From contig CAXHJY010000894.1 in the NCBI GenBank assembly GCA_964016885.1, positions 21,102-85,101 of the forward strand: a stretch of DNA of 64,000 nt. Reading direction: 5' to 3'. The notes beneath the pieces are model-generated. The model had not been told where the DNA came from and did not search any database. It saw only the letters and a program-made list of their open reading frames with translations. Both the position numbers and the translations under genes were made by a program. This document shows positions 4,330 through 60,344 of this stretch, piece after piece (positions within the stretch are counted from its first letter, which is position 1; each line of letters opens with the position of its first letter). This DNA is from Eledone cirrhosa (taxonomy: Eukaryota).

Positions 4330-4400
<71 letters not shown>
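4330..4400. repeat. (CT)n microsatellite
   Basis: Visible directly. Confidence 0.95.
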
Positions 4401-4402
<2 letters not shown>

Positions 4403-4427
4403 GATATTAATAAATGGAAACCATAAT

Positions 4428-4488
4428 TATTCTATTATATATATTTCAAGGGTACCAAAACTTTGACACGCTCTCATCAGATAAAATA
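4428..4488 (-). ncRNA. Type-I hammerhead ribozyme (minus-strand copy)
   Basis: Reverse complement of 4589-4649 with the core intact (TCATCAG at 4474-4480; TTTC at 4444-4447). Confidence 0.75.
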
Positions 4489-4588
4489 CAAAATTTGTTT
4501 TATAAATAGTGACATACCCAGGAATCAGACCTTAATAGTTCAGGTTCTCTGATTCCTGGGTATGTCACTATTTATAAAACAAATTTTG

Positions 4589-4649
4589 TATTTTATCTGA
4601 TGAGAGCATGCCAAAGTTTTGGTACCCTTGAAATATATATAATAGAATA
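4589..4649 (+). ncRNA. Type-I hammerhead ribozyme
   Basis: tattttat-CTGATGA-gag...ctt-GAAA-t-atat-a-TA-atagaata: 8-bp stem I (one G-U), palindromic stem III, AUA triplet, predicted cut after 4641. Confidence 0.8.
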
Positions 4650-5193
4650 AATATGGTTTTATAAATATAGTTTCCATTTATTAATATCATTGATATTACA
4701 ATCCAGAAAACTGTCGAGTGCTTCGAATCTGTTATAAATATATTTTTGGAATTACCAACAAATTAAATATCTCTTTGCTTATATATATATATACACACAC
4801 ACACACACGAGTGTGATCATCCATTTTACGTTCGTTTTTGTATGTACGTGTACATATGTGTGTTTATACATACGCACACACAACCATCTATTTGTGAAGG
4901 GGCATAATCTACTGGTGAGAGTGTTGGTCTCAACAATAAGGCTGTAGGTTCGCTCTCTGGATGGGGCAGTACATTATTTCACGATGTTCTAACCCATTCA
5001 GCTGAAAATATAAGTTCATATAAGCAACATATCTATCTGTCTACATACATATATGTTTGTATGTATGTATGTATATATATATATATATGTATGTATGTAT
5101 ATATATATATATGTATGTATGTATATATATATGTATATGTATGTATATATATATGTATATGTATGTATATATATATGTATATATATATATATA

Positions 5194-13213: not shown

Positions 13214-13835
13214 TTAACCCTTTCATGATTGTATTTCTAATGAAATACACTTATTTTAATTCATTAAAGAAGAATTTTGAGTAATTTACTAAGATTTTTA
13301 ACTTAACTTATGATTCATCATCACCATTTTAACGTCCACTTTTCGTACGAGCAAGCGTTGGATGGGTCTACATAGACCAAGTCAGTACTAAAGCGGGGCT
13401 TTATATATATATATTTATATAGTGTGTGTGTCTGTATTGAACACAAGTCAGAGATAGAAGGTTAATTAGTACAGTGTTTTACGATCGTTTCAGAGGGTTG
13501 ATTGATCATGGTAGATCAATATATCAACTAACAGGTAGCTGTTCTATTGCTACCTGTTTCTAATCTTGAAATTTGTTATTAAGCCCACCGTCTTCTTCAG
13601 AAACAATATATATATATATAATTGTGTTGAAAATTTTTAATTTCTTTAAAATGGGTGGTTTTGTTCCATAGGATGACAGCCAGCTTTGACAAGGTTACTA
13701 CTTAAAGTAGTAAAAGGATTACAAGGTTAAAATTATGTTGAAAGATTTTAATTTCAATAGGAACCTTATAAAATGGGCAGTTTTCTTTTATAAGTTGCAA
13801 GCCAATTTTGGCCAGGTTAGTAATAAAAGGGTTAC
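13214..13835. mobile_element. piggyBac-like MITE interrupted by nested insertions
   Basis: TTAACCCTTT left end and AAAAGGGTTA right end; related ends at ~19645, 24425-24685 and 47316-48046. Confidence 0.5.
13475..13605 (-). ncRNA. Type-I hammerhead ribozyme with long stem/loop II, in a solo PLE-end remnant (13422-13605)
   Basis: Minus strand: tgttt-CTGAAGA-agacggtgg...caaccctct-GAAAC-gatc-GTA-aaaca; perfect 5-bp stem I, palindromic ACGATCGT stem III; (TA)n on both sides. Confidence 0.7.
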
Positions 13836-15266: not shown

Positions 15267-15459
15267 ACGAAGGAAATGTGGTAAGGAACCAGGTGGACCA
15301 TAACGCACCAAAGTACTCAATACTTAGGGTAGTAGAGTGGGTAATAGGAACAAGTAAGACCCCGACGGCTGAGCTCAAGCCGTTTCGACGGCTAATTCTG
15401 TACAGAATTAGCCGTCGAAACGGCTTGAGCTCAGCCGTCGGGGTCTTACTTGTTCCTAT
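15267..15459 (-). mobile_element. Fold-back half-hammerhead element, copy 1 (perfect 116-bp palindrome at 15344-15459 plus tail)
   Basis: 58-bp arms are exactly complementary around TGT|ACA; contains GAAAC-GGC-ttgagctca-GCC-GTC-ggggtc; flanked by (TA)n; homologous to 33138-33330. Confidence 0.8.
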
Positions 15460-15862: not shown

Positions 15863-15954
15863 ATAATGATGCCTGCACTCTACCAATGTATTGAGTACCT
15901 TTTTAAACTGTGGTCACCTCTCAATCCCCATCAGGAAACTACCCATAATTATAT

Positions 15955-16294
15955 CATCATTCATCATCATCATTTCATTTTACGTCCACTTTTTCCCTGC
16001 TTGCAAGGGTGGGACGGGAACTGATTCTGGCTTGATTTCTACAGCTGGATGCCCTTCCTAACACCAACCTCATTTACAGTGAGTGCTGGGTGTTTTTTTG
16101 CCGTGGCACCTCCACGACCACTTTGCAGTGGAATGATAGGGACCCCAGTTCCTATCATCTCATTTCTACAGCTGAGTAAACTGGAGCAATGTGAAATAAA
16201 GTGTCTTGAAACAACACATCACCCGGTCTGAGAATTGAACTCACAACCTTTCGATTGCAAGCCCAATGCTCTAACCACTAAGCTATGTGCCTCC
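15955..16294 (-). mobile_element. SINE family A, full length
   Basis: Reverse complement of 12275-12608 with a (TGA)n tail. Confidence 0.92.
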
Positions 16295-19742: not shown

Positions 19743-21640
19743 AAGGCGGTGGAAGAATGTTTAGAATGTTGGGCAAAATGCTTTGCAGCATTTAGTTACG
19801 CCCCTTTATGTTCTGAGTTCAAATCTCTCCAAGGTCAACTTTGCCTTTCATCCTTCCATGATTGATAAAATAAAGTACCAATCATGCACTGGGGCTGATG
19901 TAATAGACTTTCCTTCCTTGTACTTTTCAATAATGTCTTGCTAATGTGGTTCATGTGGTTTGTTAATTCATATGTTCATAGTATCTTTACTAGTGGACAG
20001 ATCATTGTGAACATTTTCAGTAAAGACTTTAATGTATAATGTGATGCAGTCACAGTGCTGTTTTGTTCTTTTTGAGAATGTCATGCTAATGAGGTTTCAT
20101 GTGATACAGGACGTTAAGAGTTAATGCTCTCCTCAATCTTTCTTTATTAGAATTGTATCACTCTGGAACCACTATTCCACCCATGGACACTCCCTTCCTT
20201 TCCTCTTGCAAATACCCTGCAAGAGTTGAAGCCAGAACTCCCCAGTTGTCCCTACATGGTAATCTGGAAAGGTCTAGAAGGATCTGTGCTTACTACGCTT
20301 TGTTTATTTCAGGAAAATAAGGTTCTATAGTTACTGCCTTTCTTATTTGTGAAAATAAGAATCTATAGTTACTGCCCTTCTTATTAAAAAAATTAAGGAT
20401 CTATGCTTCCTACTCTTCTTATTCAGGGCATCCAGCTGTAGAAACTTTGCAAAAAATGGATCATATGAACAAAATGTGGTTCCCTAACTGTGTGAACTTG
20501 TGCCAGCATGGAATAGACATAAAATGATGGTGGTGGGGTGGTAGTGTGATGATGATAATGATGATAAATGAGACATAGCATATTGATGTTAAGCAATCTA
20601 CAAAGAATGAAATAAGTTCTAATTTAGGCACAAAGCCAGCAATTTGTGGGAAGGGAAAGTTTTTTATTTCAGCCTCAGTACATGACTGGTGCTTTATTTT
20701 ATTGACCCTGAAAAAGATGAAGAGCAAAGTTGATCTCACTGGAATTTAAACTCAGAATGTAAAGATACAGAACAATAGCATTTTATTTGATGCTCTACCA
20801 TTTCTGCCAACCCTTTCTTTCATCTAATATTGATTTCTAATATAGGCACAAAGCCAGGGAATTTGGAGAAGTTGATTAAATTAACCCTGTATTTGACTGG
20901 TATTTCATGTTATCAACCCCAGAAGGATGAAAGGTAAAATTGATTTTGGTGGGATTTGAACTCAATGTAAAGAGACACAACTGAATGTTGCAAAGTATTT
21001 TGTTCAATCAGAAACAAGATAATAGTTTCTGATTTTATTTCAAAATACTCAAATATATTCCTAGAATAAAATTACATAAAAATAATAAAGAATTTAATAC
21101 TTAGTCAATCATACAGAAAAAGAAAGCAGTATTGGAAAGGACTATAAATGCCATAAATGAGAGGAAAATGAGGGAAAGACCAACAAAAGAAAGAAAGGGA
21201 AAGGACGACAGACTCTACACCTATGTTAGAGTGGTGTTTTGGCTTCAGACAATGGCCAGGGGAGGGGGGGGGGAAGTTGATTAAATCAATGTGTTACTGG
21301 TACTTTATTTTATCGCCCCCACGTAATGGTGAAAAGCAAAGTTAATCTCGGTGGGATTTAAACTCAGACCATAAAGTTCAAATCCCACCGAGGTTAACTT
21401 TGTCTTTCATGAGGTCAATAAAATAAAGCACCAGTAATGTACTGGGATAATTGCTAGCTGTGTGCCAAATCTAGAAACAATTATTTTGTTTGGACAGTGG
21501 AGAGTAGTGGATTGGCAGTATCAGTAGAAAGTTGGACAATATGTCCTATATAAAGGGACATAACTATAGTTACATCCCTTTACGTTCGGAGTTCAAATTC
21601 TGCAAGGTTAGCTTTGCTTTTCATCATTTTGGGTGTCAAT
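19743..21640. mobile_element. Cluster of older SINE family B copies (~19743-19910 +, 20610-20810 -, 20830-21000 -, 21275-21375 -, 21376-21483 +, 21495-21640 +)
   Basis: Recurrent GAGTTCAAAT...GGTCAACTTTGCCTTTCATCC...TAAAGTACCA motif on both strands. Confidence 0.75.
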
Positions 21641-27233: not shown

Positions 27234-27475
27234 TAAGAAATATAAAATATATGTGTAACGGTAAACTTAAAAATTCAAATTACTACATCAATAATAGTAT
27301 TAATGATAAATAAATAAAGGAAGGGGAACAGATAGAAATGAGAGAGAAAGAAAGAAAATGACAAAAGAAGGAACGAAGATATAGTTAAATGTATAACCGG
27401 CAAAGTTACGAAATCAAACTATCACATCAAATTAAATATAATATTAATAATAATAATAATAATAAAGATATATAT

Positions 27476-30400
27476 AGAAATCGTAGAAATGCTAGAGCGA
27501 AAGGAAGTTGATGTATGCTGTGTGCAAGAGACTAGATGGAGAGGAGGGTCTGCTAGAGTCCTTGTAGGAAAAAGCCAGTGCTACAAATTTTTCTGGGTGG
27601 GAAATGACGATGGGATGGGTGGTGTAGGTATACTATTAGCTGACAAGTGGGTAGATAAAGTAATCTCAGTGTACAGGGTAAATGCAAGAATCATTAAACT
27701 CAGACTAGTCCTGAATAAGACAATTACCACAATAATATCAGCTTACGCACCCCAATCGGGGCTGCCAGACGAACTTAAGGATAGGTTTTACGAGTCCCTA
27801 ATACACACTACTGCTCTAACAGACGACAAGGACTTCCTAATCATTGCAGGAGATTTTAACGGACACGTAGGTAAACACTGCGACGGCTTCAATAGAGTAC
27901 ATGGAGGCCATGGAGTTGGCACAAGGAATGAGGAAGGATTCAGACTTCTAGAATTCTGCGACGCCAATGACATGTCGATATGTAACACAAACTTTAAAAA
28001 ACCCGACAACCACCTGATCACCTATAGATCAGGGGAGCACTCTAGTCAGTTAGATTTTATCCTCATCAGAGGACGTGACAGATGGACGGTCGTAAACACA
28101 AAAGCCTTCCCTAGTGAGGAATGTACATCCCAACATAGCTTAGTTGTCAGCGACCTCACGGTCAGAACTAGACGAGCCCTGAAACAGAGGCCAACCTGGA
28201 GAAGAAAGATCTGGAAGCTGAAAGTCCCCTCAACCAGTAACAGATTTAAAGATATTTTACTCAACGCCTACGACAGTAAAGAAGAACAGATAGAGACATT
28301 TAACGTAGAAGAGAACTGGGAGTTCCTAAAAAATAACTTACTAGAGGCGACGGATGAGGTTTGTGGCTGGAGTAAGACCTCAAGCAGGAGGAGAGTGACT
28401 TGGTGGTGGAACAATAAGGTAGATGAAGCAGTCAAGGCCAAGAGACAGGCATGGAAAGAATGGAAGAACGGGGGGAGCAGGGTACATTACATAGAGACCA
28501 AGAGGGAAGCTAGGCGACAAGTATACTTAGCTAGGAGGGAAGCAGAGGATAGAAAATTCAAGCATGTTTTACAACGTGAGGACCAGAAACAGGAGGTATT
28601 CAAGATTGCGAGGCAGTGTGTCAGAGATAGTTGTGATGTCATTGGAGAGAAGTGTATCCGGAATGATAAAGGTGAGCTTGCCCTCACAAGTGCTGAGAAG
28701 AAAGATGCATGGAAGAGTCATTATGATAGATTACTAAATGAGGAGAATGCATGGGAAGAAGAGACCCTACCCCACGTAGACCCTATAGAGGGACCAGCAG
28801 TACAAGTCAGCGGCAGCGTAGTAAGTAAGGCAATCAGAGATATGAAGATAGGGAAGGCAACCGGTCCATCGGGTATAGCTGCCGAGATGCTGAAGGCATC
28901 TGGGTCTGTAGGTCACACTATAACCACACGTATCGTTAACCAGGTAATACTAGAGGGGGCCATACCAAAAGATTGGTGCAGTAGCATCATTGTCAACTGC
29001 TACAAAGGTAAAGGCGATGCACTAGATAGAGGAAACTATAGAGGTATAAAGTTGATGGACCAGGTCATGAAAGTAACAGAAAGAGTTATAGCACAGCTGA
29101 TTAGGGACCGGGTGAATATAGACGAGATGCAATTTGGGTTTGTTCCAGGGAAAGGCACCACTGATGCGCTCTTCCTTGTGAGGCAATTACAGGAAAAGTA
29201 CCTAGCTAAAAGTAAGCCACTCTACTTGGCATTTGTCGACCTTGAGAAAGCCTTTGACAGAGTTCCACGTGCAGTAATCTGGTGGGCTCTTAGAAAACTA
29301 GGAGTAGATGAATGGCTTGTGAAAGCGGTACAAGCCATGTATAGGGGAGCAGTCAGCAAAGTTAGGATTGGCAATGAGTATAGCGAGGAATTTAGCGTAC
29401 AGGTTGGGGTCCACCAGGGCTCTGTTCTTAGCCCTCTCCTGTTCATCATAGTCCTGCAGGCAATAACGGAGGAGTTTAAGACCGGATGCCCATGGGAACT
29501 CCTGTATGCTGATGACCTCGCACTCATAGCTGAATCTATGGTAGAACTAGAGAATAAATTCCAAACCTGGAAGCAGGGACTAGAGAGAAAGGGCCTCAAA
29601 GTCAACATGACAAAGACTAAGGTCCTTATAAGTAGACGAGAAAACAGAACCCAGATCCCCTCAGGGAAATGGCCTTGCTCAGTATGTAGGAAAGGTGTAG
29701 GTAGGAACTCCATTCTTTGCCCCAAATGCAAACAATGGGTACACAAGAGATGTAGCGGGATCTCAGGAAGCTTAATTAAGAATGTAGGATTCACATGCAG
29801 CAGCTGTGCTGAAACAGCAAGCAAACAGCCACAGGAAACAAGTACCACCAATCTCTGGGAGGGCCCTGTAGAAACAGTAGACAGCTTCTGCTACCTAGGT
29901 GACCGAATTAGCAACGGAGGTGGGTGCTCAGAAAGTACAATAACTAGGGTAAGAACGGGATGGAAGAAGTTTAGGGAACTACTACCACTGCTAGCTGCAA
30001 AAGGCTTCTCCCTCAGAATGAAAGGCAGACTGTATGATGCGTGTATCCGAACAGCGATGTTGCATGGTAGTGAGACCTGGGCGCTGAAGGTGGAAGACTT
30101 ACGTAGATTAGAGAGAAACGAAGCCTGCATGCTCCGATGGATGTGTAACAGTAATATACGTGAACGACAAAGCATAAATGAATTGAGAGAGAGACTGAGC
30201 ATAAGAGGAATCAAATGCTGCGTGCAGGAGAGGCGGTTACGCTGGTATGGACATGTGATGCGTATGAAGGATGACAGCTGCATAAAAAGGTGCAGAGCAC
30301 TAGAAGTTGATGGAAACCGCGGAGTGGGGAGACCCAAGATGACTTGGGATGAGGTGATAAAAGCCGACCTTACCCAACTACACCTCTCAAAGTCAATGAC

Positions 30401-30787
30401 ACACGACCGTGACTTCTGGCGTCACGCAGTAATACAGGGTACCCGACCTCCCATGGGTACATGCTGAAGCATATAAACAATATGCCCCCCCCCCCCCCCC
30501 CCCACCCCCCCACCGCAAGGTGGTCGTGGAGGTGCCACGGCAAAAAAGCACCCAGCCCACACTGTAAAGTGGACGTGTAGGCGCCACGAAAAAGCACCCA
30601 GCACTCACTGTAAATGAGGTTGGTGTTAGGAAGGGCATCCAGCTGTAGAAATCAAGCCAGGTCAGTTCCTGTATGAGCAAGGCATGGTCAGCCGACCAGA
30701 CACTGCCCACAACAGGACAACCCGTCTAACCCATGCTAGCGTGGAAGAACGGACGTAAAACGGTGATGATGATGATGATGATGATGA
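27476..30787 (+). mobile_element. RTE-clade LINE, family 1, slightly 5'-truncated, young
   Basis: Uninterrupted ORF, 3' UTR with a C-run and subrepeats, (GAT)n tail. Confidence 0.95.
27489..30467 (+). CDS. RTE ORF2: APE endonuclease + reverse transcriptase with internal PHD-type finger (992 aa; first endonuclease motif TxNV lost to truncation)
   Basis: VQETRW, SAYAPQ, GDFNGHVG, QFGF, FVDLEKAFDRV, GVHQGSVLSP, LYADD, CSVC..CPKCKQWVHKRC..CSSC, RLRWYGHV. Confidence 0.95.
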   Translation: MLERKEVDVCCVQETRWRGGSARVLVGKSQCYKFFWVGNDDGMGGVGILLADKWVDKVISVYRVNARIIKLRLVLNKTITTIISAYAPQSGLPDELKDRFYESLIHTTALTDDKDFLIIAGDFNGHVGKHCDGFNRVHGGHGVGTRNEEGFRLLEFCDANDMSICNTNFKKPDNHLITYRSGEHSSQLDFILIRGRDRWTVVNTKAFPSEECTSQHSLVVSDLTVRTRRALKQRPTWRRKIWKLKVPSTSNRFKDILLNAYDSKEEQIETFNVEENWEFLKNNLLEATDEVCGWSKTSSRRRVTWWWNNKVDEAVKAKRQAWKEWKNGGSRVHYIETKREARRQVYLARREAEDRKFKHVLQREDQKQEVFKIARQCVRDSCDVIGEKCIRNDKGELALTSAEKKDAWKSHYDRLLNEENAWEEETLPHVDPIEGPAVQVSGSVVSKAIRDMKIGKATGPSGIAAEMLKASGSVGHTITTRIVNQVILEGAIPKDWCSSIIVNCYKGKGDALDRGNYRGIKLMDQVMKVTERVIAQLIRDRVNIDEMQFGFVPGKGTTDALFLVRQLQEKYLAKSKPLYLAFVDLEKAFDRVPRAVIWWALRKLGVDEWLVKAVQAMYRGAVSKVRIGNEYSEEFSVQVGVHQGSVLSPLLFIIVLQAITEEFKTGCPWELLYADDLALIAESMVELENKFQTWKQGLERKGLKVNMTKTKVLISRRENRTQIPSGKWPCSVCRKGVGRNSILCPKCKQWVHKRCSGISGSLIKNVGFTCSSCAETASKQPQETSTTNLWEGPVETVDSFCYLGDRISNGGGCSESTITRVRTGWKKFRELLPLLAAKGFSLRMKGRLYDACIRTAMLHGSETWALKVEDLRRLERNEACMLRWMCNSNIRERQSINELRERLSIRGIKCCVQERRLRWYGHVMRMKDDSCIKRCRALEVDGNRGVGRPKMTWDEVIKADLTQLHLSKSMTHDRDFWRHAVIQGTRPPMGTC

Positions 30788-33105: not shown

Positions 33106-33137
<32 letters not shown>

Positions 33138-33140
<3 letters not shown>

Positions 33141-33330
33141 AAAATGTTCAAGACCCCGACGGCAGGGCTAGCCGTTCCGATGGCTATTTCTGGACTCAGA
33201 AATAGCAATTGAAATGGCTAGCTCTGCCGTCGGGGTCTTGAACATTTTCCTTTTACCCACTCTACTACCCTAAGTATTGAGGACTCTGGTGCATTATGGT
33301 CCATCTGGTCCCTTACCACACTTCCTTCGT
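33138..33330 (+). mobile_element. Fold-back half-hammerhead element, copy 2 (inverted repeat 33138-33251 plus tail)
   Basis: Arms around a GACT loop; GAAAT-GGC-tagctct-GCC-GTC-ggggtc; tail TTACCCACTCTACTACCCTAAGTATTGAG...TTCCTTCGT shared with copy 1. Confidence 0.8.
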
Positions 33331-33340
33331 TATATATATA

Positions 33341-34834
33341 TCATCATCATCATCATCATCATTCATCATTTCATTTTACGTCCGCTTTTCCCTACTTGCA
33401 AGGGTGGGACGGGAACTGATTCTGGCTTGATTTCTACAGCTAGATGCCCTTCCTAACACCAACCTCATTTACAGTGTGCTGGGTGCTTTTTTGCCATGGC
33501 ACCTCCACGAATGATAGGGACTGAGTAAACTGGAGCAATGTGAAATAAAGTGTCTCAAGGAAACAACACATCACCCGGTCTGGAATGATAGGGACTGAGT
33601 AAACTGGAGCAATGTGAAATAAAGTGTCTCAAGGAAACAACACATCACCCGGTCTGAGAATGATAGGGACTGAGTAAACTGGAGCAATGTGAAATAAAGT
33701 GTCTCAAGGAAACAACATATCACCCGGTCTGGAATGATAGGGACTGAGTAAACTGGAGCAATGTGAAATAAAGTGTCTCAAGGAAACAACACATCACCCG
33801 GTCTGGAATGATAGGGACTGAGTAAACTGGAGCAATGTGAAATAAAGTGTCTCAAGGAAACAACATATCACCCGGTCTGGAATGATAGGGACTGAGTAAA
33901 CTGGAGCAATGTGAAATAAAGTGTCTCAAGGAAACAACATATCACCCGGTCTGGAATGATAGGGACTGAGTAAACTGGAGCAATGTGAAATAAAGTGTCT
34001 CAAGGAAACAACACATCACCCGGTCTGGAATGATAGGGACTGAGTAAACTGGAGCAATGTGAAATAAAGTGTCTCAAGGAAACAACACATCACCCGGTCT
34101 GGAATGATAGGGACTGAGTAAACTGGAGCAATGTGAAATAAAGTGTCTCAAGGAAACAACATATCACCCGGTCTGGAATGATAGGGACTGAGTAAACTGG
34201 AGCAATGTGAAATAAAGTGTCTCAAGGAAACAACACATCACCCGGTCTGGAATGATAGGGACTGAGTAAACTGGAGCAATGTGAAATAAAGTGTCTCAAG
34301 GAAACAACACATCACCCGGTCTGAGAATGATAGGGACTGAGTAAACTGGAGCAATGTGAAATAAAGTGTCTCAAGGAAACAACATATCACCCGGTCTGGA
34401 ATGATAGGGACTGAGTAAACTGGAGCAATGTGAAATAAAGTGTCTCAAGGAAACAACACATCACCCGGTCTGAGAATGATAGGTACTGAGTAAACTGGAG
34501 CAATGTGAAATAAAGTGTCTCAAGGAAACAACATATCACCCGGTCTGGAATGATAGGTACTGAGTAAACTGGAGCAATGTGAAATAAAGTGTCTCAAGGA
34601 AACAACACATCACCCGGTCTGGAATGATAGGGACTGAGTAAACTGGAGCAATGTGAAATAAAGTGTCTCAAGGAAACAACATATCACCCGGTCTGAGAAT
34701 GATAGGGACTGAGTAAACTGGAGCAATGTGAAATAAAGTGTCTCAAGGAAACAACACATCACCCGGTCTGAGAATTGAACTCATAACCTTTCGATTGCAA
34801 GGCCAATGCTCTAAACACTAAGCCATGTGCCTCC
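33341..34834 (-). mobile_element. SINE family A expanded by an internal tandem array
   Basis: Intact tail (33341-33508) and tRNA head (34771-34834) bracket the array. Confidence 0.9.
33509..34770. repeat. Minisatellite, 17 x 74-75 bp, derived from the SINE A interior
   Basis: Unit GAATGATAGGGACTGAGTAAACTGGAGCAATGTGAAATAAAGTGTCTCAAGGAAACAACAYATCACCCGGTCTG(A); no spacers. Confidence 0.95.
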
Positions 34835-34935
34835 TATATATATATATTATATATATATATATATATAATATATATATTATATATATATTATATATATTAT
34901 ATATATATATATTATATATATATATATATTATATA

Positions 34936-35161
34936 TCATTCATCATCATCATCATTTCATTTTACGTCCGCTTTTCCCTGCTTGCAAGGGTGGGACGGGA
35001 ACTGATTCTGGCTTGATTTCTACAGCTGGATGCCCTTCCTAACACCAACCTCATTTACAGTGAGTGCTGGGTGCTTTTTTGCAGTGGAATGATAGGGTCC
35101 CCAGTCCCTATCATCTCATTTCTACAGCTGAGTAAACTGGAGCAATGTGAAATAAAGTGTT
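34936..35161 (-). mobile_element. SINE family A, 5'-truncated
   Basis: Tail and centre present, tRNA head absent. Confidence 0.85.
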
Positions 35162-35486: not shown

Positions 35487-36750
35487 CTCCAGATACGTTG
35501 ATGACATACTGATACTCACTTCTTCCCGGGAGATGGCGAATGAAATTCACCAAATCTTTAACGACACTGACCATCACGTCGATTTCACCATCGAACACCC
35601 TGAAGAAGACGGGTCACTCGCCCTCCTCGACTTCCGTATCAACATCTCGGAAGAAGGAGACATAAACACCACCTTCTACCGCAAGGCAGCGTGCAAGGAC
35701 TTATTTGTGCATTACAACTCAGCCCTCCCCAACAACGCTAAGAGAGGCTATGTCCTAAATGAACTTACACGGATCACTAATAGATGCAGCGACCCGATGG
35801 GTGGTCTCACCCATACCACGCAATTCCGTAATCTACTCAAGTCTAATGGATATCCCAAGCGACTGATTAACGGAATTAGAGACCCCAGACCCAATAGACA
35901 GACACCCACTAGAAACTTAGATAAAAGCAGGTGCTTCTTTAAAATCCCCCACCTGAGTGAATATACCACGAACGCCATCCGCAGGGCCATACGGAGGGAG
36001 GGACTTGACATACATTTGGCCCACACAGGACCTTCGCTCCGAAGATGCCTCTCCACCAAACCCGACGAGTCAGATGGGACGTGTTCCCTCAGCAACTGCC
36101 CGATACGGGGGGGCAGATTGCCTACGCACCTATGTCGTATATAAGATTCAATGCGATAAATGTAACAAGTTTTACATAGGTAGCACCATCCGACCCCTAC
36201 ATGTTCGTATCAAGGAACATGTCAACACCAACGCATCTTCCTTCCGTAAACACATCCTTAAATGCGGAAACCCACAGGGCAGACCCTTGGTCACAGTCCT
36301 AGCGACTGAACGCAGCATCGGATCCTTATACACATATACACACACAGTTACACACACATATATATTTACACACACATATTTTACGGCTTTCACACGCTAG
36401 CGCACCCTATTGATTTAACCCAATTGATCAGTAGCTTTTGCCACAGCCTATCACGCGCACGCGCATTCTTTCCCTCGTTTGAATTTTCCCCATAACGGCA
36501 TTCCTATGTTTTAACGACAATACAACTTTCTCCGGCTTAGCCTGTTCCCCCCCCTTTTGGAACTTTCCCCCGTTGATGGGCGTGAGCCCGAAATAGTGGG
36601 ATTAAATCTCCACTACGGTAACCCTTCTACCTTTGTTTTGTTTTCCTTTTTCGTTTCTCTCAATTTTCACTTTTCTCCTATTTCTCACTCACTTCTTACC
36701 TCGAGATTTCCCATCTGCATTGTTGTGGCTTTCTAAACTACATATTTTAT
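35487..36750 (+). mobile_element. 5'-truncated PLE (RT C-terminus + GIY-YIG endonuclease), frameshifted at the G-run ~36107-36113
   Basis: RYVDD, FTIE, LALLD, FYRK, HYNSALP, NGYP; VVYKIQCDKCNKFYIGSTIRPLHVRIKEH (GIY-YIG); flanked by (TA)n. Confidence 0.9.
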
Positions 36751-38432: not shown

Positions 38433-38558
38433 GTAGGAGGTGATTTTTATTGTAGTACAATAAAGCAATGCAGATATTGGATAAGTAGCACTCTACAGTT
38501 TGTAGGACTGGAGTATAAATAATATATAAGATCAAAAGATGGCTAAAAGAGTTCCATG

Positions 38559-38626
38559 TATTTTATTATGCGCATTTCAAAAACAAATATCATGCGATAA
38601 CATTTGCGTTTTCGTCAGATAAAATA
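38559..38626 (-). ncRNA. Type-I hammerhead ribozyme in the inverted 5' arm
   Basis: Minus strand: tattttat-CTGACGA-aaacgcaaat...atttgttttt-GAAA-t-gcgc-a-TA-ataaaata. Confidence 0.8.
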
Positions 38627-38757
38627 GGGAGACATGATATGATATTAGAACTCCGAGGATAAATCTCAAGGATCACAAAAACAAATTTCGTACTGAACTA
38701 CCTGTTAGACTAATCGCCCTCTCTAAATCAGATCTGGGGGTTGTTAGCAAAGCCGTC

Positions 38758-40488
38758 TTGGATAGAATTATCCGACAGGTTCGTTCTAATTGCTCTTCTT
38801 TGAACTTAAATTTATGGTTTGGTACTTCTGAAGTGATTGGCTGGTTCAACAAATTGAATAAGAAAAACAAACAAAAATTTATTCAATTTGATAATGCCAG
38901 CTACTATTCTTCTATTTCGCCCTTACTTCTCAACAATGCTCTATCTTTTGCTTACAAATATTCAGACATCACCACAGATAAACTTCACATCATTCTCACT
39001 GCACGTAAAACCATCCTAGAGTTCAACAATGAATATTGGACCAGAGCTGATACCTCTAACAACTTTGACATCACAATGGGAGCATCCGATTCATCCCAAT
39101 TGACAGATTTAATTGGTATCTTTATTTTGAACTCTTTGAATCTGAAAATTCCTCAACTTCGCGGTGGAATTTATCGTGACGATGGACTCTTTACTATCTT
39201 AAATTGCAACATAGTTAACCTTAATATTATTAAGAACAATATACGTAATCTCTTTAACCGACATAACTTAAAAATTGAATTTGATAACAGCATCAAACTA
39301 GCTAATTTCTTGGATGTATCTCTTAATCTTGACACTGGCCTATATTACCCTTACCATAAAAACAATGAGAACCTAAATTATGTTAATTTTAAATCTAACC
39401 ACCCCACTAATATTAAGAATGCTATAGTTAGTAATATTGGAAAAAGAATATCCAACCTATCTTCTAATAAAAACATCTTTGATGCTAATGCCAATTACTA
39501 TAATAACGCGCTTTCTAAAGCCGGTTATCCTGATAAAATCAAATATAGTAAAGAAACAAATTCTAGATCTTACAGTAGAATAATTAATCATGATCATTCC
39601 AATAACTTTAATAAAAGACCTAGATACAAAAACATAATCTTTCTCCATCTCTATTAATAATATTATTCCTAAATTATTCTTTAGTGCCTTAAATAAATGC
39701 TTCCCTCCCTCACATATCTATAGTAAAATATTTAACAAACACACTATAAAATTTTCCTATTCGACCTCCTCCAACATCTCCAACATTATCTCTAAACACA
39801 ACAATAAAATACTAAATCTCTTCCTTCCAACACTGAATATCATAATAATAGTAATAGTACTCCCGACGTCATTGTTAACTCTAGGTTAATTTCTGCAAAC
39901 CCAAATACAACGTCAAACGCAACTTTGTTAAATGTTCTTAATCCCATTCTAAATCAAGAAACTATTATTCCTATCGTAAATAACTTCTCCAATCCAATTC
40001 ATTCTATAGATAACACTAGGTCACTTGTTAATAACTCTGTTAATTTCTCTAATCGCAATTGTAATTGCCCTGTTAAAAATAAATGTCCTCTCAACAACCA
40101 TTGTCTTGAAAAAAACTTAATCTACGAATGTAAAGTTATAACTGACACCAATTCCTTTACCTATTTTGGCTCCACTTCCACCTCCTTTAAAGCTCGTCTT
40201 TATAATCATCATTCGTCTTTTAAATACCAACTTAAAAGAACCAACACGGCACTCTCAGAACTCATATGGTCCTTGAAACACAAAAATATTAACTATAACA
40301 TCTCTTGGAAGAAGGTTTGTTCTGCTTCTCCATACTTGAATGGTTCTCTATCCAAGACATGCAATCTCTGTTTATGTGAAAAATTTACCATTATATCTAA
40401 TTTAGATTCTATAATAAATAGATGCACTGACTTGTTTTCTCTCTGCTTGCATAAATTCCACAGAACATTCCATAAAGTATACAGCTAA
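38758..40488 (+). pseudogene. PLE RT-endonuclease ORF, frameshifted (pieces 38758..39657 and 39925..40488)
   Basis: FIQFD..YYSSI, FDITMGASD, IYRDDG, NFLDVSLNL, SNHP; CNC..CPL..C, LIY..YFGST, CNLCLCEK, CLHK. Confidence 0.88.
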
Positions 40489-41446
40489 TATCTAATACTT
40501 TACCAATTTAAAATCCTTTTCTCAAAGGCACACATATATATATATACATATATATTTCTTTAAAAATATACCCATCTTTCTACCTTATTTCAATGTTATT
40601 TATTATACATTATATAATACTAGTTACTCATTCTATATCACTCCTATTTATCACTTCCCTTTCTTTCTTTTTTCCTTTTCTTTTTTTCTTTTTCTTTTAA
40701 TTTCTAACCTCTAATCTGTACCTTTTCTTCCTAGATACTTCTCAATTCTCATTATTACTCAGCACAATATATCCTTACTTTATGATATCACCTTGAAAAA
40801 TCCTTCGTAAACATAAACATTTTTTTGACGTTAGATTATTCATCCTCAATTCATTATTTTTCTCTCCCTTTCATGCTCATCTAACTTATACATAATACAC
40901 TTATTCATCCACTCTTCTACTTCTTTTCACAATATTACATTACTATTGTTATATTTTTATATTTTTTTAATAATACATATCAACAATTTCTTTCCATCGC
41001 ACATATTATTAAACCCTTAAATATTATTCTTAATACATATTAACAATTTCTTTTCATCGCACATATTATTATACCCTTCAATATACAAATCTTAATTTAA
41101 CATTATTCTAAATTTTTCTCTTCGTTAATTTTCAAATTCTTTAATTTATATATTATCTTCCAACGGTTTTTTAACCTCTCTATGTAAAACAATATATTTT
41201 TCTCAGTTGTAAAAGCTATCTCTCTCTCTCTATCACCCATCTCTCCTCGAATCTCATCCTTCCTCATTATACTCCTCCCCCTCCACTTTTTACTCATCTC
41301 CCTCTTTTTCATCCTTTCCACCCCCTCAATTTTTATTTTTTTAATTTTTTCCCAATATCACACATTAATCTAAAACTACTTTTCATATGTTGATTTAAAA
41401 CTGCACTATTCACAAGTGGTTTTTAACCTTCATATCATGTCTCCCG

Positions 41447-41515
41447 ATTTTATCTGACGAAAACGCAAATGTTATCGCATGATGATATTTGTTTTTGAAA
41501 TGCGCATAATAAAAT
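41447..41515 (+). ncRNA. Type-I hammerhead ribozyme at the PLE 3' end
   Basis: attttat-CTGACGA-stem II-GAAA-t-gcgc-a-TA-ataaaat; 7-bp stem I, palindromic ATGCGCAT, predicted cut after 41508. Confidence 0.82.
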
Positions 41516-41552
41516 ACATGGAACTCTTTTAACCATCTTTTGATCTTATATA

Positions 41553-41940
41553 TTATATATATATTATATATATATATTATATATTATATATATATATTAT
41601 ATATATATTATATATATATATTATATATATATAATATATATATATATTATATATATATATATATTATAATATATATAGATATATATATATTATATATATT
41701 ATATATTATATATATATATTATATATATATATATATTATATATATATATATATATTATATATATATATTATATATATATATTATATATATACATATATAT
41801 ATATTATATATATATATTATATTTATATATTATATTTATATATATATATTATATATATATATTATATATATATATATATATTATATATATATATTATATA
41901 TATATATTATATATATATATTATATTTATATATACATATA
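41553..41940. repeat. (TA)n-rich tract
   Basis: Visible directly. Confidence 0.95.
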
Positions 41941-43356: not shown

Positions 43357-43498
43357 ACCATGCTGTAAAATGGAGGGGTAGAGAGGGCCCTTGAGTCTAG
43401 TAAGACATCCTCTCTAGTGCTGGTGGCACAAATAAAAGCACCCAGTCCATGCTGTAAAGTGGCGCTGGTGTTAGGAAGGGCATCCAACCAGTGTATCA

Positions 43499-46400
43499 AT
43501 GCCAAAAAGCTTATCAGCACAGCAACAAAACAGCATAGAAAAAAATATGAAGACGTCGCATCTCAGAGTTGCAACACTTAATGTTGGCACTCTCAGAGGT
43601 AGATCTGCTGAAATAGCGGAGATGCTGGAGAGAAGGCAGGTGGATGTGTGCTGCGTGCAAGAGGTGAGATGGAGAGGTGCCTCTGCGAGACTAGTCGCAG
43701 GCAAGCGTCTTAGCTATAAGCTATTCTGGGTAGGTAAGGATGATGGGTTAGGGGGAGTAGGCATTTTCCTGGCTGAGAAATGGATCAATAAGACAATAGA
43801 GGTAGTTCGAGTTAGTAATCGAATAATTAAGCTTAGATTAGTTGTAGGTAGGAGACTACTGACAATCATCTCGGTCTATGCTCCCCAAGCAGGCCTAGGC
43901 AAAGATGAAAAAGACTGCTTTTATGAGCAACTTTTGCAAACAACCACAATGACAGAGGACGGAGACATCGTTATGCTAGCAGGAGACTTCAATGGTCATG
44001 TTGGACAGCTCCAGGATGGTTACACTGGGGTACATGGTGGGCATGGTTACGGTTCAAGAAATGAAGAAGGAGTGAGACTTCTTGAATTTTGTGATGCAAG
44101 TACATTGACTATTTGCAACACAAACTTCCAGAAACCTGCCAATCACCTAATAACCTACAAATCTGGTGAGCACATAAGCCAGATTGACTTCCTGCTAGTT
44201 AGGCAGCGGGACAGGCAGATAGTGTCTAATACCAAGGCATACCCTGGGGAAGAATGTACCCCACAGCATAGGTTAGTTGTTAGTGATATCTCAGTAAGCA
44301 AGAGATGGAATGAGCCATATAGGAAGGTGTGGAGAAGAAAGGTCTGGAAGCTAAAAGACCTTTCACTAAAATTCAAATTTAGGAAAGCCCTTCAAGATGT
44401 ATATGACGAAAAAGAAGACGATTTAGAGACGTATGACATAGATAATAACTGGAAGTTCTTACGTGACAACTTGCTGAAGGCTACTGATGAAACTTGTGGC
44501 TGGAGCAGAGCCCCAACCAGACAGAGAGTGACCTGGTGGTGGAACAGCAGTGTAGATAAGGCTATTAGAGACAAAAGACTAGCATGGAAGGCTTGGAATA
44601 AGGGTGGGAGTAGGGAAGAATATACAGCCACTAAGAGAGAAGCTAGACGTCAGGTGTACTTAGCACGCAGGGAGGCAGAGAGTAGGAGGTTTGCCAATGT
44701 GGTTTGCCAATGTTCTGCGACGGGAAGATCAGAGGCGTGCGGTGTTCCACATTGCAAGGCAGTGTGTCAATGCAAATCAGGATGTTGTTGGTGATAAATG
44801 TGTCCGGGATGATGCCGGTGTACTTAGTGTCACGAATGACCAGAAAAAGGAGGCCTAGAAATGCCATTATGAGAGACTGATGAATGTGGAGAACGAATGG
44901 GAGAGAGAGAAATTACCCTTGGTAGATCCGACAGAGGGACCAGCTATTGAGATTGACGAATATAGGGTCCAAGAGGCGATTAGGGAAATGAAAAATGGTA
45001 AGGCGGCCGGACCATCGGGAATAGTTGCTGAGATGCTGAAGGCATCAGGGGACGTAGGCACTAAACTGGTTGCACGCATAATCAATCAGGCTATATATGG
45101 TGGTGTCATACCCAAAAACTGGTGCAGCAGTATTCTCATAAATTGCTACAAAGGTAAAGGGGATGCTTTGGAGAGGAGCAATTATAGGGGTATAAAACTG
45201 ATAGATCAGGTTATGAAAGTGGCAGAAAGGATTTTAGCACAACTAATTAGAGAAAGGGTCAAACTAGATGAGATGCAGTTTGGTTTTGTGCCTGGGAAGA
45301 GTACAACAGATGCCCTCTTCTTGGTGAGACAAATGCAAGAGAGGTTCTTAGAGAAGAATAAGCCACTATACTTGGCCTTTGTTGACCTAGAGAAGGCCTT
45401 TGATAGGGTACCCCGATCTGTCATCTGGTGGTCCCTAAGGAAGCTGGGTGTTGAGGAATGGCTTGTAAGGACAGTGCAAACTTTGTACAGAGGTACACTC
45501 AGTAAAGTCAGGGTAGGAATGGAGTTTAGTGAGGAATTCCAGATACAAGTAGGAGTACATCAGGGTTCGGTCCTCAGCCCGCTCTTGTTCATTATAGTCC
45601 TCCAAGCCATAACAGAGGAGTTTAAGACTGGCTGTCCATGGGAACTTCTCTATGCTGACGATCTGGCTCTTATGGCAGAATCAGTAGAGGAGCTAGAGAA
45701 TAAATTCCGGCTATGGAAACAGCAGTTGGAAGCAAGAGGACTGAGAGTAAATCTAGCTAAGACAAAAGTGTTGATGAGTAGAAAAGAGGACAAAACCCTG
45801 ATTCCGTCAGGGAAATGGCCATGTTCGATATGCAGAAAAGGAACTGGCATAAATTCTATAAAATGCACACAATGTAGGTCCTGGGTACACAAGAGATGTA
45901 GCGGGATAGCAGGCAAACTAACAGGTAGGGAGAAATATGTATGCAGTAGATGTACAGGGAAATTAGACAGTAGAAGTCGCACCGATAGACACATTTTTCA
46001 AATGCGAGAGGGCGCTATAGAAGTGGTGGATAGCTTCCGGTACCTAGGAGATCAGATTAGCATGGGAGGAGGGTGTTCCGAGGCCATAGTATCTAGAATA
46101 AGGACGGGTTGGAAGAAGTTTAGGGAGCTGCTTCCTCTGTTGACGAAGAAGGGTTTCTCCCTGCGTACGAAAGGCCGGTTGTATGATGCCTGTGTGAGGG
46201 GCGCGATGCTGCATGGTAGTGAGACATGGGCAGCTACCGCAGAAGATATGCGACGGCTGGAGAGAAATGAGGCAAGCATGCTCCGTTGGATGTGCAGTGT
46301 AAATGTGCGTGAACGACCCAGCATAAATGTGTTGAGAGAGAAACTGTGTCTGAGAGGGATAGAATGTAGTGTACGGGAGAGGAGACTGAGGTGGTATGGA

Positions 46401-46636
46401 CATGTGATGCGCATGGAGGATGACCGATGGGTGAAGAAGTGCCAGGAAATGCCAGTTGAAGGAAGACGTAGTAGAGGTAGACCACGAAAAACATGGGCGG
46501 AGGTGGTGAGAACAGACCTCAGATCATTGAAGCTCACGGTGGAGATGACGAGGGACCGTGATGAGTGGAGAGATGCTGTGCTGAATAAGACCCGTCCCAC
46601 CCTTGCAAGCAGGGAAAAGCGGACGTAAAATGATGA
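43499..46636 (+). mobile_element. RTE-clade LINE, family 2, near full length; ORF broken by a 13-bp duplication (44688-44713) and a TAG at 44856
   Basis: RVATLNVGTL, VQEVRW, GDFNGHVG, FVDLEKAFD, LYADD, PHD-type CSIC..CTQCRSWVHKRC..CSRC; ends GGAAAAGCGGACGTAAAATGATGA. Confidence 0.95.
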
Positions 46637-53735: not shown

Positions 53736-56700
53736 ATCATCATCATCATCATCACCGTTTTACGTCCGTTCTTCCACGCTAGCATGGGTTAGACGGGGTG
53801 TCCTGTTGTGGGCAGTGTCTGGTCGGCTGACCATGCCTTGCTCATACAGGAACTGATTTGGCTTGATTTCTACAGCTGGATGCCCTTCCTAACACCAACC
53901 TCATTTACAGTGAGTACTGGGTGCTTTTTCGTGGCGCCTACACGTCCACTTTACAGTGTGGGCTGGGTGCTTTTTTGCTGTGGCACCTCCACGACCACCT
54001 TGCAGTGGGGTGAGTGGGGGCATATTGTCTATATGCTTCAGCTTGTACCCATGGGAGGTCTGGTACTCTGTATTAATGCGTGACGCCAGAGGTCATGGTC
54101 GTGTGTCATCGCCTTCGGGAGGGGTAATTGGGTAAGGTCGGCTTTTATCACCTCATCCCAAGTCATCTTGGGTCTCCTCACTCCGCGGTTTCCATCAACT
54201 TCTAGTGCTCTGCACCTTTTTATGCAGCTGTCATCCTTCATACGCATCACCTGTCCATACCAGCGCAACCGCCTCTCCTGCACACAGCATTTGATTCCTC
54301 TTATGCTCAGTCTCTCTCTCAATTCATTTATGCTTTGTTGTTCGCGTATATTACTGTTACATATCCATCGGAGTATGCAGGCTTCGTTTCTCTCTAATCT
54401 ACGTAAGTCTTCCACCTTCAGCGCCCAGGTCTCGCTTCCATGCAGCATCGCTGTTCGGATACACGCATCATACAGTCTGCCTTTCATTTTGAGGGAGAAG
54501 CCTTTTGCAGCTAGCAGTGGTAGTAGTTCCCTACACTTCTTCCATCCCGTTCTTACCCTAGTTATTGTACTTTCTGAACACCCACCTCCGCTGCTAATTC
54601 GGTCACCTAGGTAGCAGAAGCTGTCTACTGTTTCTACAGAGCCCTTTCAGAGATTGTTGGTACTTGTTTCCTGTGGCTGTTTGCTGTTTGCTGTCCCAGC
54701 ACAGCTGCTGCAAGTGAAGCCTACATTCTTAATTAAGCTTCCTGAGATCCCGCTACATCTCTTGTGTACCCATTGTTTGCATTTGGGGCAGAGAATGGAG
54801 TTCCTACCTACACCTTTCCTACATACTGAGCAAGGCCATTTCCCTGAGGGGATCTGGGTTCTGTTTTCTCGTCTACTTACAAGGACCTTAGTCTTTGTCA
54901 TGTTGACTTTGAGACCCTTTCTTTCTAGTCCCTGCTTCCAAGTTTGGAATTTCTTCTCTAGTTCTACCATAGATTCAGCTATAAGTGCGAAGTTATCAGC
55001 GTACAGGAGTTCCCATGGGCATCCGGTCTTAAACTTCTCTGTTATTGCCTGCAGGACTATGATGAAAAGGAGGGGGCTAAGAACAGAGCCCTGGTGGACA
55101 CCAACCTGTACACTAAATTCCTCGCTATACTCATTGCTAATTCTAACTTTGCTGACTGCTCCTCTATACATGGCTTGTACAGCTTTCACAAGCCATTCAT
55201 CTACTCCTAGTTTTCTAAGAGCCCACCAGATTACAGCACATGGAGCTCTGTCAAAAGCTTTCTCAAGGTCAACAAATGGCAGGTAGAGTGGCTTACTTTT
55301 AGCTAGGTACTTTTGCTGTAACTGCCTCACAAGGAAGAGGGCATCAGTGGAGCCTCTTCCTGGTACAAACCCAAATTGCATCTCATCTAGTTTCACCCGG
55401 TCCCTAATCAACTGTGCTATAACTCTTTCTGTTACTTTCATGACCTGGTCCATCAGCTTTATACCTCTATAGTTTCCTCTATCTAGTGCATCACCTTTAC
55501 CTTTGTAGCAGTTGACAATGATGCTACTGCACCAATCTTTTGGTATGACACCTTCTAGTATTACCTGGTTAACAATACGTGTGGTTATAGTGTGACCTAC
55601 AGACCCAGATGCCTTCAGCATCTCGGCAGCTATACCCGATGGACCGGTTGCCTTCCCCATCTTCATACCTTTGATTGCCTTACTTACTACGTTGCTGCTG
55701 ATTTGTACTGCTGGCCCCTCTATAGGGTCTACTTGGGGTTGGGTCTCTTCTTCCCATGCATTCTCCTCATTTAGTAATCTATCATAATGACTCTTCCATG
55801 CATCTTTCTTCTCAGCACTTGTGATGGCAAGCTCACCTTTATCATTCTGGATACACTTCTCCCCAATGACATCACAATTCTCTCTGACACACTGCCTCGC
55901 AATCTTGAACACCTCCTGTTTCTGGTCCTCAAGTTGCAAAACATGCTTGAATTTTCTATCCTCTGCTTCCCTCCTAGCTAAGTATACTTGTCGCCTAGCT
56001 TCCCTCTTGGTCTCTATGTAATGTACCCTGCTCCCCCCGTTCTTCCATTCTTTCCATGCCTGTCTCTTGGCCTTAACTGCCTCATCTACCTTATTGTTCC
56101 ACCACCAAGTCACACTCCTCCTGCTTGAGGTCTTACACCAGCCACAGACCTCATCCGTCGCCTCTAGCAAGTTATTTTTTAGGAACTCCCAGTTTTCTTC
56201 TACATTGAATGTCTCTATCTGTTCTTCTTTACTGTCGTAGGCGTTGAGTAAAATATCTTTAAATCTGTTACTGGTTGAGGGGTCTTTCAGCTTCCAGATC
56301 TTTCTTCTCCAGGTTGGCCTCTGTTTCCAGGTTCATCTAGTTCAGACTGTGAGGTCGTTGTCAACTAAGCTATGTTGGGATGTACATTCCTCACTAGGGA
56401 AGGCTTTTGTGTTTACGACCGTCCATCTGTCACGTCCTCTGATGAGGATAAAATCTATCTGACTAGAGTGCTCCCCTGATCTATAGGTGATCAGGTGGTT
56501 GTCGAGTTTTTTAAAGTTTGTATTACATATCGACATGTCATTGGCGTTGCAGAATTTTAGAAGTCTGAATCCTTCCTCATTTCTTGTGCCAACCCCATGG
56601 CCTCCATGTACTCTATTGAAGCCGTCGCAGTGGTTACCTACGTGTCCGTTAAAATCTCCTGCGATGATTAGGAAGTCATTGTCGTCTGTTAGAGCAGTAG

Positions 56701-56886
56701 TGTGCATTAGAGACTCGTAAAACCTATCCTTAAGTTCGTCTGGCAGCCCCGATTGGGGTGCGTAAGCTGATATTATTGTGCCATCGTCATTTCCCACCCA
56801 GAAAAATGTGTAGCACCGACTTTTTCCTACAAGGACTCTAGCAGACTCTCCTCTCCATCTAGTCTCTTGCACACAGCATACATCAA
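53736..56886 (-). mobile_element. RTE family 1 copy, 5'-truncated, with an in-frame endonuclease deletion and frameshifts
   Basis: ORF pieces 56342..56992, 54647..56170 and 54038..54487 closely match 27489..30467. GNDDG joins directly to TIISAYAPQ; YADD has become YADN; (TGA)n tail. Confidence 0.95.
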
Positions 56887-56932
56887 TATATATTATATAT
56901 ATATTATATATTATATATATATTATATATATC

Positions 56933-57253
56933 GGAGGCACATGGCTTAGTGGTTAGAGCATTGGCCTTGCAATCGAAAGGTTGTGAGTTCAATTCTCAGA
57001 CCGGGTGATGTGTTGTTTCCTTGAGCAAGACACTTTATTTCACATTGCTCCAGTTTACTCAGCTGTAGAAATGAGATGATAGGGACAGGGTTCCCTATCA
57101 TTCCACTGCAAAGTGGTCGTGGAGGTGCCACGGCAAAAAAATGAGGTTGGTGTTAGGAAGGGCATCCAGCTGTAGAAATCAAGCCAGCATCATTTCTCGT
57201 CCCACCCTTGCAAGCAGGGAAAAAGCGGACATAAAATGAAATGATGATGATGA
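56933..57253 (+). mobile_element. SINE family A
   Basis: Head, CORE-like centre and RTE tail present; small internal deletion. Confidence 0.9.
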
Positions 57254-60175: not shown

Positions 60176-60344
60176 ATATTATATATATATATATTATATA
60201 TATATTATATATATTATATATATATATTATATATATTATATATATTATATATATTATATATATTATATATATATATTATATATATATATATATTATATAT
60301 ATTATATATATATATATTATATATATTATATATATTATATATAT

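Follow-up and report, generated by a model that had tools for sequence, protein, structure and literature searches.

The locus at 33138-33330 of the 64-kb stretch of DNA analysed here (the window) raises the question of how a 193-base hairpin with a one-sided tail came to be embedded in (TA)n, and from which template its inverted arm was made. The target microsatellite is read directly from the sequence on the left (33107..33137) and on the right (33331..33341) of this copy, called c2. Between these flanks follow a short inverted arm on the minus strand, which runs from an AGGA end to the putative hammerhead loop II and carries no tail (33138..33192; sequence, alignment and recurrence in reads and contigs), a head-to-head junction composed of CTG, the loop GACT at 33193-33196 and CAG (33190..33199; sequence, loose-end consensus and depth step), a tail-bearing arm on the plus strand with the decayed 3' half of a type I hammerhead-like fold (33197..33251; sequence and motif shuffles), and a 79-nt tail, also on the plus strand, which occurs at this end only and lies between two putative start sites (33252..33330; sequence and depth in the read run X19). 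The arms pair at 50 of 55 positions, leaving five mismatches and the 4-nt loop, and the RNA fold reaches z = −13.4 with none of 200 shuffles equally good. At the junction a 3-nt microhomology, CAG/CTG, forms a 3-bp stem around the loop. The exact end of the short arm is blurred by three letters (TAT) common to arm and microsatellite, and a target-site duplication is unreadable within (TA)n; such duplications are variable in Penelope-like elements (PLEs). Since c2 lacks both the CUGANGA half of the ribozyme and any open reading frame (ORF), it is predicted to be a dead insertion.

A sister copy from another subfamily, c1, lies on the minus strand at 15267..15457 and is a perfect palindrome, as seen from sequence, alignment and fold. 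Its tail occupies 15267-15345, its tail-bearing arm 15346-15401 and its short arm 15402-15457; pairing is complete (55/55) without a loop, and the fold has z = −17.9. In accordance with the original prediction, c1 and c2 share one layout in opposite orientation, with two arms, a tail of 79 nt at one end, (TA)n at both ends and short arms that finish at AGGA beside (TA)n. The copies align over 199 columns at 83%, and the tail, which had been described as retained, differs at 7 of 79 positions. An alignment of the four arms contains 14 variable columns, nine of which follow the copy, none the side and five a single arm. The nine by-copy columns comprise five substitutions and two 2-base indels, that is seven events, and all seven of these shared differences are present in both arms. 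The mirrored substitutions claimed before are thereby borne out, and a grouping of left arms with left arms is seen in no column of this comparison, which covers the two copies c1 and c2. Every single-arm change falls in c2, two of them being CpG transitions, and the five arm mismatches of this copy are likely later decay. A profile of c1 and c2 run over the 64-kb window revealed no further clear copy. A weak, decayed likeness to their tail at 15876-15915, 400 bp from c1 (profile E = 1), may be an old tail-only copy.

The tail-bearing arms carry motifs resembling those of a hammerhead ribozyme. In c1 the order on this strand is GAAA, a 6-bp stem with palindromic loop, GUC and GGGGUC, which matches the part of a type I hammerhead around helix III. 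In c2, GAAA (33211-33214), a helix III with palindromic loop and the GUC site (33229-33231) are flanked by the putative 3' strands of helix II and helix I. The 6-bp helix III motif of c1 was equalled by 5 of 2000 dinucleotide shuffles and the 3-bp motif of c2 by 544 of 2000, which is not significant. The CUGANGA half is absent from c1 as well, and Rfam matched no hammerhead family at either copy. With helix II and loop II assigned from standard numbering, the fold point of both copies would fall where loop II is expected. For PLE hammerheads, a long helix II, a palindromic loop 3 and an occurrence as opposite-strand pairs 100-700 bp apart are on record (excerpt of PMC4209133); the c1/c2 family has a long helix III (5-6 bp), in contrast to minimal metazoan hammerheads. 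A microRNA precursor was considered and rejected, the generic hairpin matches staying below the Rfam gathering threshold (24.7 of 59 bits for c2, 40.1 of 69 for c1). An ORF of 44 codons through arm and tail of c1 was also rejected, as it is not kept in c2, and no reading frame is open in both copies.

The standard PLE layout comprises an inverted 5'-truncated copy beside a pseudo-LTR, a tail of 30-40 bp at one end only, and (TA)n (excerpts of PMC8557442 and PMC8969392). Junction palindromes and an inverted copy shorter than the direct one are also described, with self-priming on an antisense template as the proposed origin (excerpt of PMC3846280). The c1/c2 family very likely belongs to the PLEs, as judged by its architecture and by half a hammerhead motif, which reaches significance in c1 only; it is a new family with an already known PLE insertion architecture. 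Copy c2 itself is probably the 5'-truncated 3' end (pseudo-LTR) of such an element in (TA)n, its arms likely being two separate cDNAs made at insertion. The inverted arm is likely a known kind of insertion by-product and not a new element. Like the units of endonuclease-positive (EN+) PLEs (Penelope/Poseidon, Neptune, Nematis and Hydra, in the excerpts of PMC8557442, PMC3846280 and PMC8969392), the family exhibits a head-to-head inverted 5'-truncated copy, a junction palindrome or microhomology (CTG-GACT-CAG in c2, a loopless palindrome in c1), a tail at one end only, a (TA)n target and, in the repeat, a putative hammerhead motif. Unlike the units in these excerpts, c2 is complete with 193 nt, contains no ORF and is truncated inside the ribozyme. 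Its tail of 79 nt (~90 nt in neighbouring families) also exceeds the 30-40 nt reported for PLEs in the excerpts of PMC8557442 and PMC3846280.

A parent element of the family was found neither in the 64-kb window nor in viral, metagenome and prokaryote collections, and the two PLE ORFs of the window belong to other families. A 27-mer of the tail had 0 exact matches in viral and metagenome contigs, and a 23-letter arm motif had 0 in viral and prokaryote genomes. Two metagenome matches to the latter were dismissed as chance, the contigs having 71-72% G+C and neither the tail nor the helix III continuation. Non-LTR retrozymes are likewise non-coding, hammerhead-bearing and PLE-derived, but according to the part of the preprint considered (bioRxiv 10.64898/2026.07.22.740005) they consist of tandem units in head-to-tail order, every unit having a complete type I hammerhead, whereas c2 is a head-to-head pair with half a ribozyme; this assignment was rejected. 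So was a MITE or fold-back DNA transposon, since the 79-nt tail lies outside the inverted repeat and the inner junction varies between copies.

Other Penelope-like insertions accompany c1 and c2 in the window. A 5'-truncated PLE of another family with an ORF lies on the plus strand at 38433..41560, with (TA)n on both sides (motifs, clusters and alignment). Its ORF contains the reverse transcriptase (RT) motifs YYSSI, MGA and YRDD and a C-terminal cysteine-rich GIY-YIG-like domain; the reading is broken by stops, and an Asn-rich stretch between the RT and nuclease parts recalls the N-rich inserts described in the excerpt of PMC3846280. Pfam matched neither ORF. The nearest Atlas clusters are eukaryotic and RT-linked (0.95-0.96; RVT_1 on 13-17% of members) and GIY-YIG (0.94; 37% of members). 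At the 3' end a full minimal hammerhead at 41454 is followed by (TA)n without a tail; an inverted copy of the element with hammerhead and a tail of ~90 nt lies at 38433-38642 (95% over 132 nt). The thumb region aligns (E = 3e-05) to a second truncated PLE in (TA)n at 35488-36745, which starts at the RT motif YVDD, is frameshifted and has a Pfam GIY-YIG match; a decayed hammerhead with a long helix III was noted in it near 36573.

A third fold-back on the plus strand at 4400..4780 (alignment) is ORF-less and has a full minimal hammerhead in each arm. Its tail (4691-4780) stands at the right end only and is homologous to that of 38433-41560, the tail-to-tail score being reached in 0 of 1000 shuffles. 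This fold-back has an 18-nt spacer and a 14-nt deletion in the left arm, and its single relative at 60030-60176 ends without a tail. A solo fragment between TA runs on the minus strand (13430-13610), in which a CUGAAGA core and GAAA accompany a long helix III, is probably a further PLE end. In total, four insertions from at least two unrelated families have the same one-sided-tail asymmetry. Between the tails of the c1/c2 family and that of 38433-41560 no significant alignment was obtained (516 and 92 of 1000 shuffles as good), so that the likeness of c1 and c2 to this element is one of analogy, not of descent. A tail hairpin motif (ACTC, 3-bp stem, GAGT) occurs in c1, in the ORF-bearing element and at 15877, three times compared to 0.175 expected. 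It was kept as a lead only, as it was drawn from the same sequences, is absent from c2 and does not correspond to the minimum-energy fold of the c1 tail.

To the reference 33126-33345, four of 21 runs were aligned at 80% likeness, namely X1 (contigs of organism A, perhaps from the sequenced sample itself), X19 (raw RAD reads of organism A from an independent study, a read type that samples few loci), X4 (contigs of organism B, a second species) and X9. Matching records amounted to 8,409 contigs in X1, 17,286 reads in X19 and 160 contigs in X4; X9 gave 0 at this likeness, possibly a false blank. The c1/c2 family is abundant. At the tail end, 33326-33333 has an X19 depth of ~9,500 and the TA run that follows one of ~8,700; 7,741 reads continue past 33341 in TA repeats. 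On the other side, the depths are ~2,600 (33134-33141) and, over the (TA)n to the left (33126-33133), ~2,400. Several common alternative letters at 33143-33151 of the left arm, together with this flank depth, indicate that several subfamilies have the AGGA short-arm end beside (TA)n. The second species also reaches the left TA flank (depth 62 in X4, five contigs at 33145). Relative to the tail/(TA) junction, the short-arm/(TA) junction has a depth of 0.13 (X1) to 0.28 (X19), depths not being copy numbers. The claim of a reproducible process instead of chance is supported, with arms grouped by copy and an AGGA/(TA)n end that recurs in several subfamilies and a second species.

The inner junctions behave differently from the outer ends. 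They were read from the best 15 of 40 joints and from 12 of 53 rows with letters between the joined parts, and the usual support is 1-3 contigs or 1-4 read starts, at 80% likeness. Eight of these 15 joints leave the inverted arm at 33193-33196 and skip into 33245-33294, resuming at 33245, 33246, 33253, 33259, 33285, 33286 or 33294, six of the eight with 1-9 known letters between; their inverted arms consequently hold sequence that the direct arms lack. Two of the 15 fold after only ~11 nt (33147>33242 and 33148>33241), and in the 12 rows inverted arms from 33144 resume at 33220, 33232, 33255, 33256 and 33273. The form 33196>33253 has a contig depth of 105, compared to ~3-12 for single-locus contigs, and one letter between; by its letters it reads as an inverted arm plus bare tail without overlap, a candidate for the plain two-primer product. 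In 750 X19 reads AT-rich loose ends stand directly before 33253, that is before the tail alone, with a consensus agreement of only 0.52. The putative hammerhead loop II is a junction hotspot, not the sole fold point. The fold point postulated as common to both copies is matched within 2-4 nt in c1 and c2 and is not fixed across the family; likewise, of the arm endpoints, the outer ones recur beside (TA)n and the inner ones vary in reads and contigs.

Some features of the alignment bear on how these data are to be read. Among the aligned records listed, none covers the complete c2 stretch, and the X19 depth drops from ~1,260 to ~60 across 33197/33198, a step partly confounded by the private changes of c2 and by poor sequencing of hairpins. 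As the reference contains no sequence upstream of loop II, longer arms are under-counted, and neither the reference nor the 30-letter loose ends extend further upstream. Mirrored variants in aligned records were not counted as proof of pairing per copy, because a palindromic reference mirrors them anyway. The remaining five of the 15 joints, which start from 33170/33173 and appeared to connect opposite strands, were set aside as mapping artefacts, sense molecules fitting the left arm of c2 better than its decayed right arm. Long palindromes are prone to deletion, and the varied junctions could be post-insertion deletions.

The loose ends also identify the strand to which the loop of c2 belongs. 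Before 33220, 2,611 reads of X19 have the consensus AGTCC ahead of the arm (agreement 0.8), 81 contigs of X1 have AGTTC, and reads that bear the tail match the minus strand of 33170-33198. The loop letters of c2 agree with the family sequence on the strand of the short arm, not on the tail-bearing strand. This puts AGTCC on the strand of the short arm, so that of the two cDNAs the short-arm one reached furthest; its overlap with the tail-bearing arm is CAG/CTG. The original prediction had inferred a regeneration of the inverted arm from the sense arm. In this form the inference is not supported: some inverted arms exceed their direct arms, and the loop of c2 lies on the short arm's strand, which makes it improbable that the sense arm was the template of the inverted one. 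One kind of RNA template, used in two priming events, is the more likely source of both arms.

The two arms, the one-sided tail, the (TA)n ends, the grouping by copy, the recurrent outer ends and the variable inner junctions are direct observations. The GIY-YIG nuclease of the element would nick both (TA)n strands. One target 3' end would then prime at an outer RNA site, the tail end at 33330, whereas the second would use the AGGA end, an inner site located 79 nt further upstream. The lengths of the cDNAs would vary, with loop II of the hammerhead close to their most frequent stop, and the two ends would anneal via a few complementary bases (CAG/CTG in c2) and be filled in. We infer that the arms of c2 are likely two cDNAs made on opposite target strands from two fixed RNA sites and joined head-to-head by microhomology. 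In L1 twin priming, two target 3' ends prime one element and the inverted part is joined by microhomology, the inner primer site being variable and the two parts non-overlapping. Compared with this, the inner site of the c1/c2 family is fixed, and its parts range from non-overlapping to fully duplicated.

Biochemical precedent is provided by a purified PLE protein, PAc (Poseidon of Anolis). According to the excerpt of PMC11167929, this protein is predicted to be a dimer; it acts by preference on AT-rich DNA, where it nicks both strands and extends them, and it initiates reverse transcription at two sites on the RNA between which the tail lies. Later steps, among them those on the second strand, are left unvalidated there. 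Two-strand priming and two start sites are thus known from another PLE, and we infer their application to c2; the two fixed start sites of PAc fit the two fixed outer ends of the c1/c2 family. The part of that paper considered gives no account of the inverted copy, and in PAc the region after the hammerhead encodes the ORF start, which differs from the c1/c2 family, where no frame is open in both copies. The formation of inverted PLE units is named an open question in the excerpt of PMC8557442. In a search of titles and abstract openings, with most subscription papers and older PLE reviews outside its scope, neither two fixed primers as an explanation of PLE inversion nor a link of the PLE junction to helix II was found.

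Copy c2 bears a mirrored minority variant, T at 33181 and A at 33208, where the family majority is C (40,572 of 42,041 in X1 depth). This pair, which lies in a CpG, hints that both cDNAs were made from one RNA. A tentative generalization, which we regard as possible but by no means favoured, is that inverted PLE units arise by fixed-site twin priming of a single RNA. The subunits of an RT dimer would start at the tail end and at the inner site on opposite target strands, the outer cDNA would stop at the inner site or displace the inner cDNA and copy on, and helix II/loop II would be the usual stop and joining point. If true, the fold of the ribozyme would influence insertions quite apart from cleavage, and the length of the tail would mirror how far apart the two subunits sit (80-90 nt in this lineage). 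The loop II hotspot itself may reflect either a stop at the ribozyme fold or merely the 5' end of a non-autonomous master.

Two other origins have to be weighed against priming from two target ends. In the one, which retains the PLE, an antisense RNA or first cDNA ending at loop II folds back and primes the second arm, after which a nuclease resolves the hairpin and one end keeps the tail. Such self-priming has been proposed for inverted junction palindromes of PLEs (excerpt of PMC3846280), and the junction of c2, a 3-bp stem with a 4-nt loop, speaks for it. For the orientation of this loop the two versions diverge: an antisense template predicts it as found in c2, whereas a snap-back of the tail-bearing cDNA predicts the opposite, given the consensus AGTCC before the arm, and a snap-back starting from the short arm would yield no tail. 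The mirrored variant fits one arm templating the other but, situated at a CpG, equally fits one RNA read twice. Moreover, c1 has no loop at all, each of the 8 joints with a surplus of inverted arm among the best 15 of 40 would need an extra deletion, and the in vitro data favour priming on sense RNA at both target strands (excerpt of PMC11167929). We consider self-priming unlikely.

Quite unlikely, too, is that a small number of founder palindromes multiplied as intact units, non-autonomous like a SINE or MITE, their arms being matched by intra-palindrome conversion and the odd junctions arising from later deletions. The closeness of the fold points of c1 and c2, at least one X19 read that passes over this tip at a different locus (joint 33170>33220, side 64), loop II as the commonest inner end and the junction form with depth 105, hence in several near-identical copies, would suit such amplification. 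Few molecules that reach loop II continue like c2, however, as seen in the partly confounded depth step, and the short-arm/(TA) depth is only a minor fraction of tail/(TA). In addition, the tail outside the inverted repeat excludes terminal inverted repeats, and the same asymmetry, with the fold point elsewhere, is seen in three further insertions of unrelated sequence in the window. Fold-back chimeras arise in some libraries, c1 is a perfect palindrome and c2 is spanned whole by no listed record. Nevertheless, an assembly or library artefact or a chance palindrome has a practically negligible probability and is already refuted for the family: the c2 arms differ at 5 of 55 positions, both copies have common ends and fold region, the short-arm/(TA) junction is present in independent raw reads (X19) and in another species (X4), and the fold z of c2 argues against chance.

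With two-end priming as the preferred reading, c2 as an element is ordinary, a dead stub of published architecture, and its value is that of a test bed for PLE inversion. The family is very abundant, its unit fits one short read, and its outer ends are fixed while the inner junctions vary; junction counts in one assembly could separate the two-primer, self-priming and founder-amplification models. It represents a modest mechanistic lead. PLE stubs of this kind are mistakable for microRNA hairpins or MITEs.

Several repeats of other kinds were observed in the window. A tandem array (33509-34800), in which a 74-75 bp segment of a short interspersed repeat is present ~16 times, begins 180 bp right of c2, and the repeat end at 33340-33520 reappears at 34923-35082 (94%). 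LINE copies with AP endonuclease, RT and PHD finger by Pfam are located at 27342-30467, 43475-46628, 54007-56995 and 60135-62515, and the stretches 27728-30782 and 53736-56780 are ~95% identical in inverted orientation. A 28-bp fold-back with a 10-nt loop lies within a short interspersed repeat at 21337-21402. On the minus strand at 16228-16285, a tRNA-like match barely above the Rfam threshold is probably the head of a tRNA-derived SINE.
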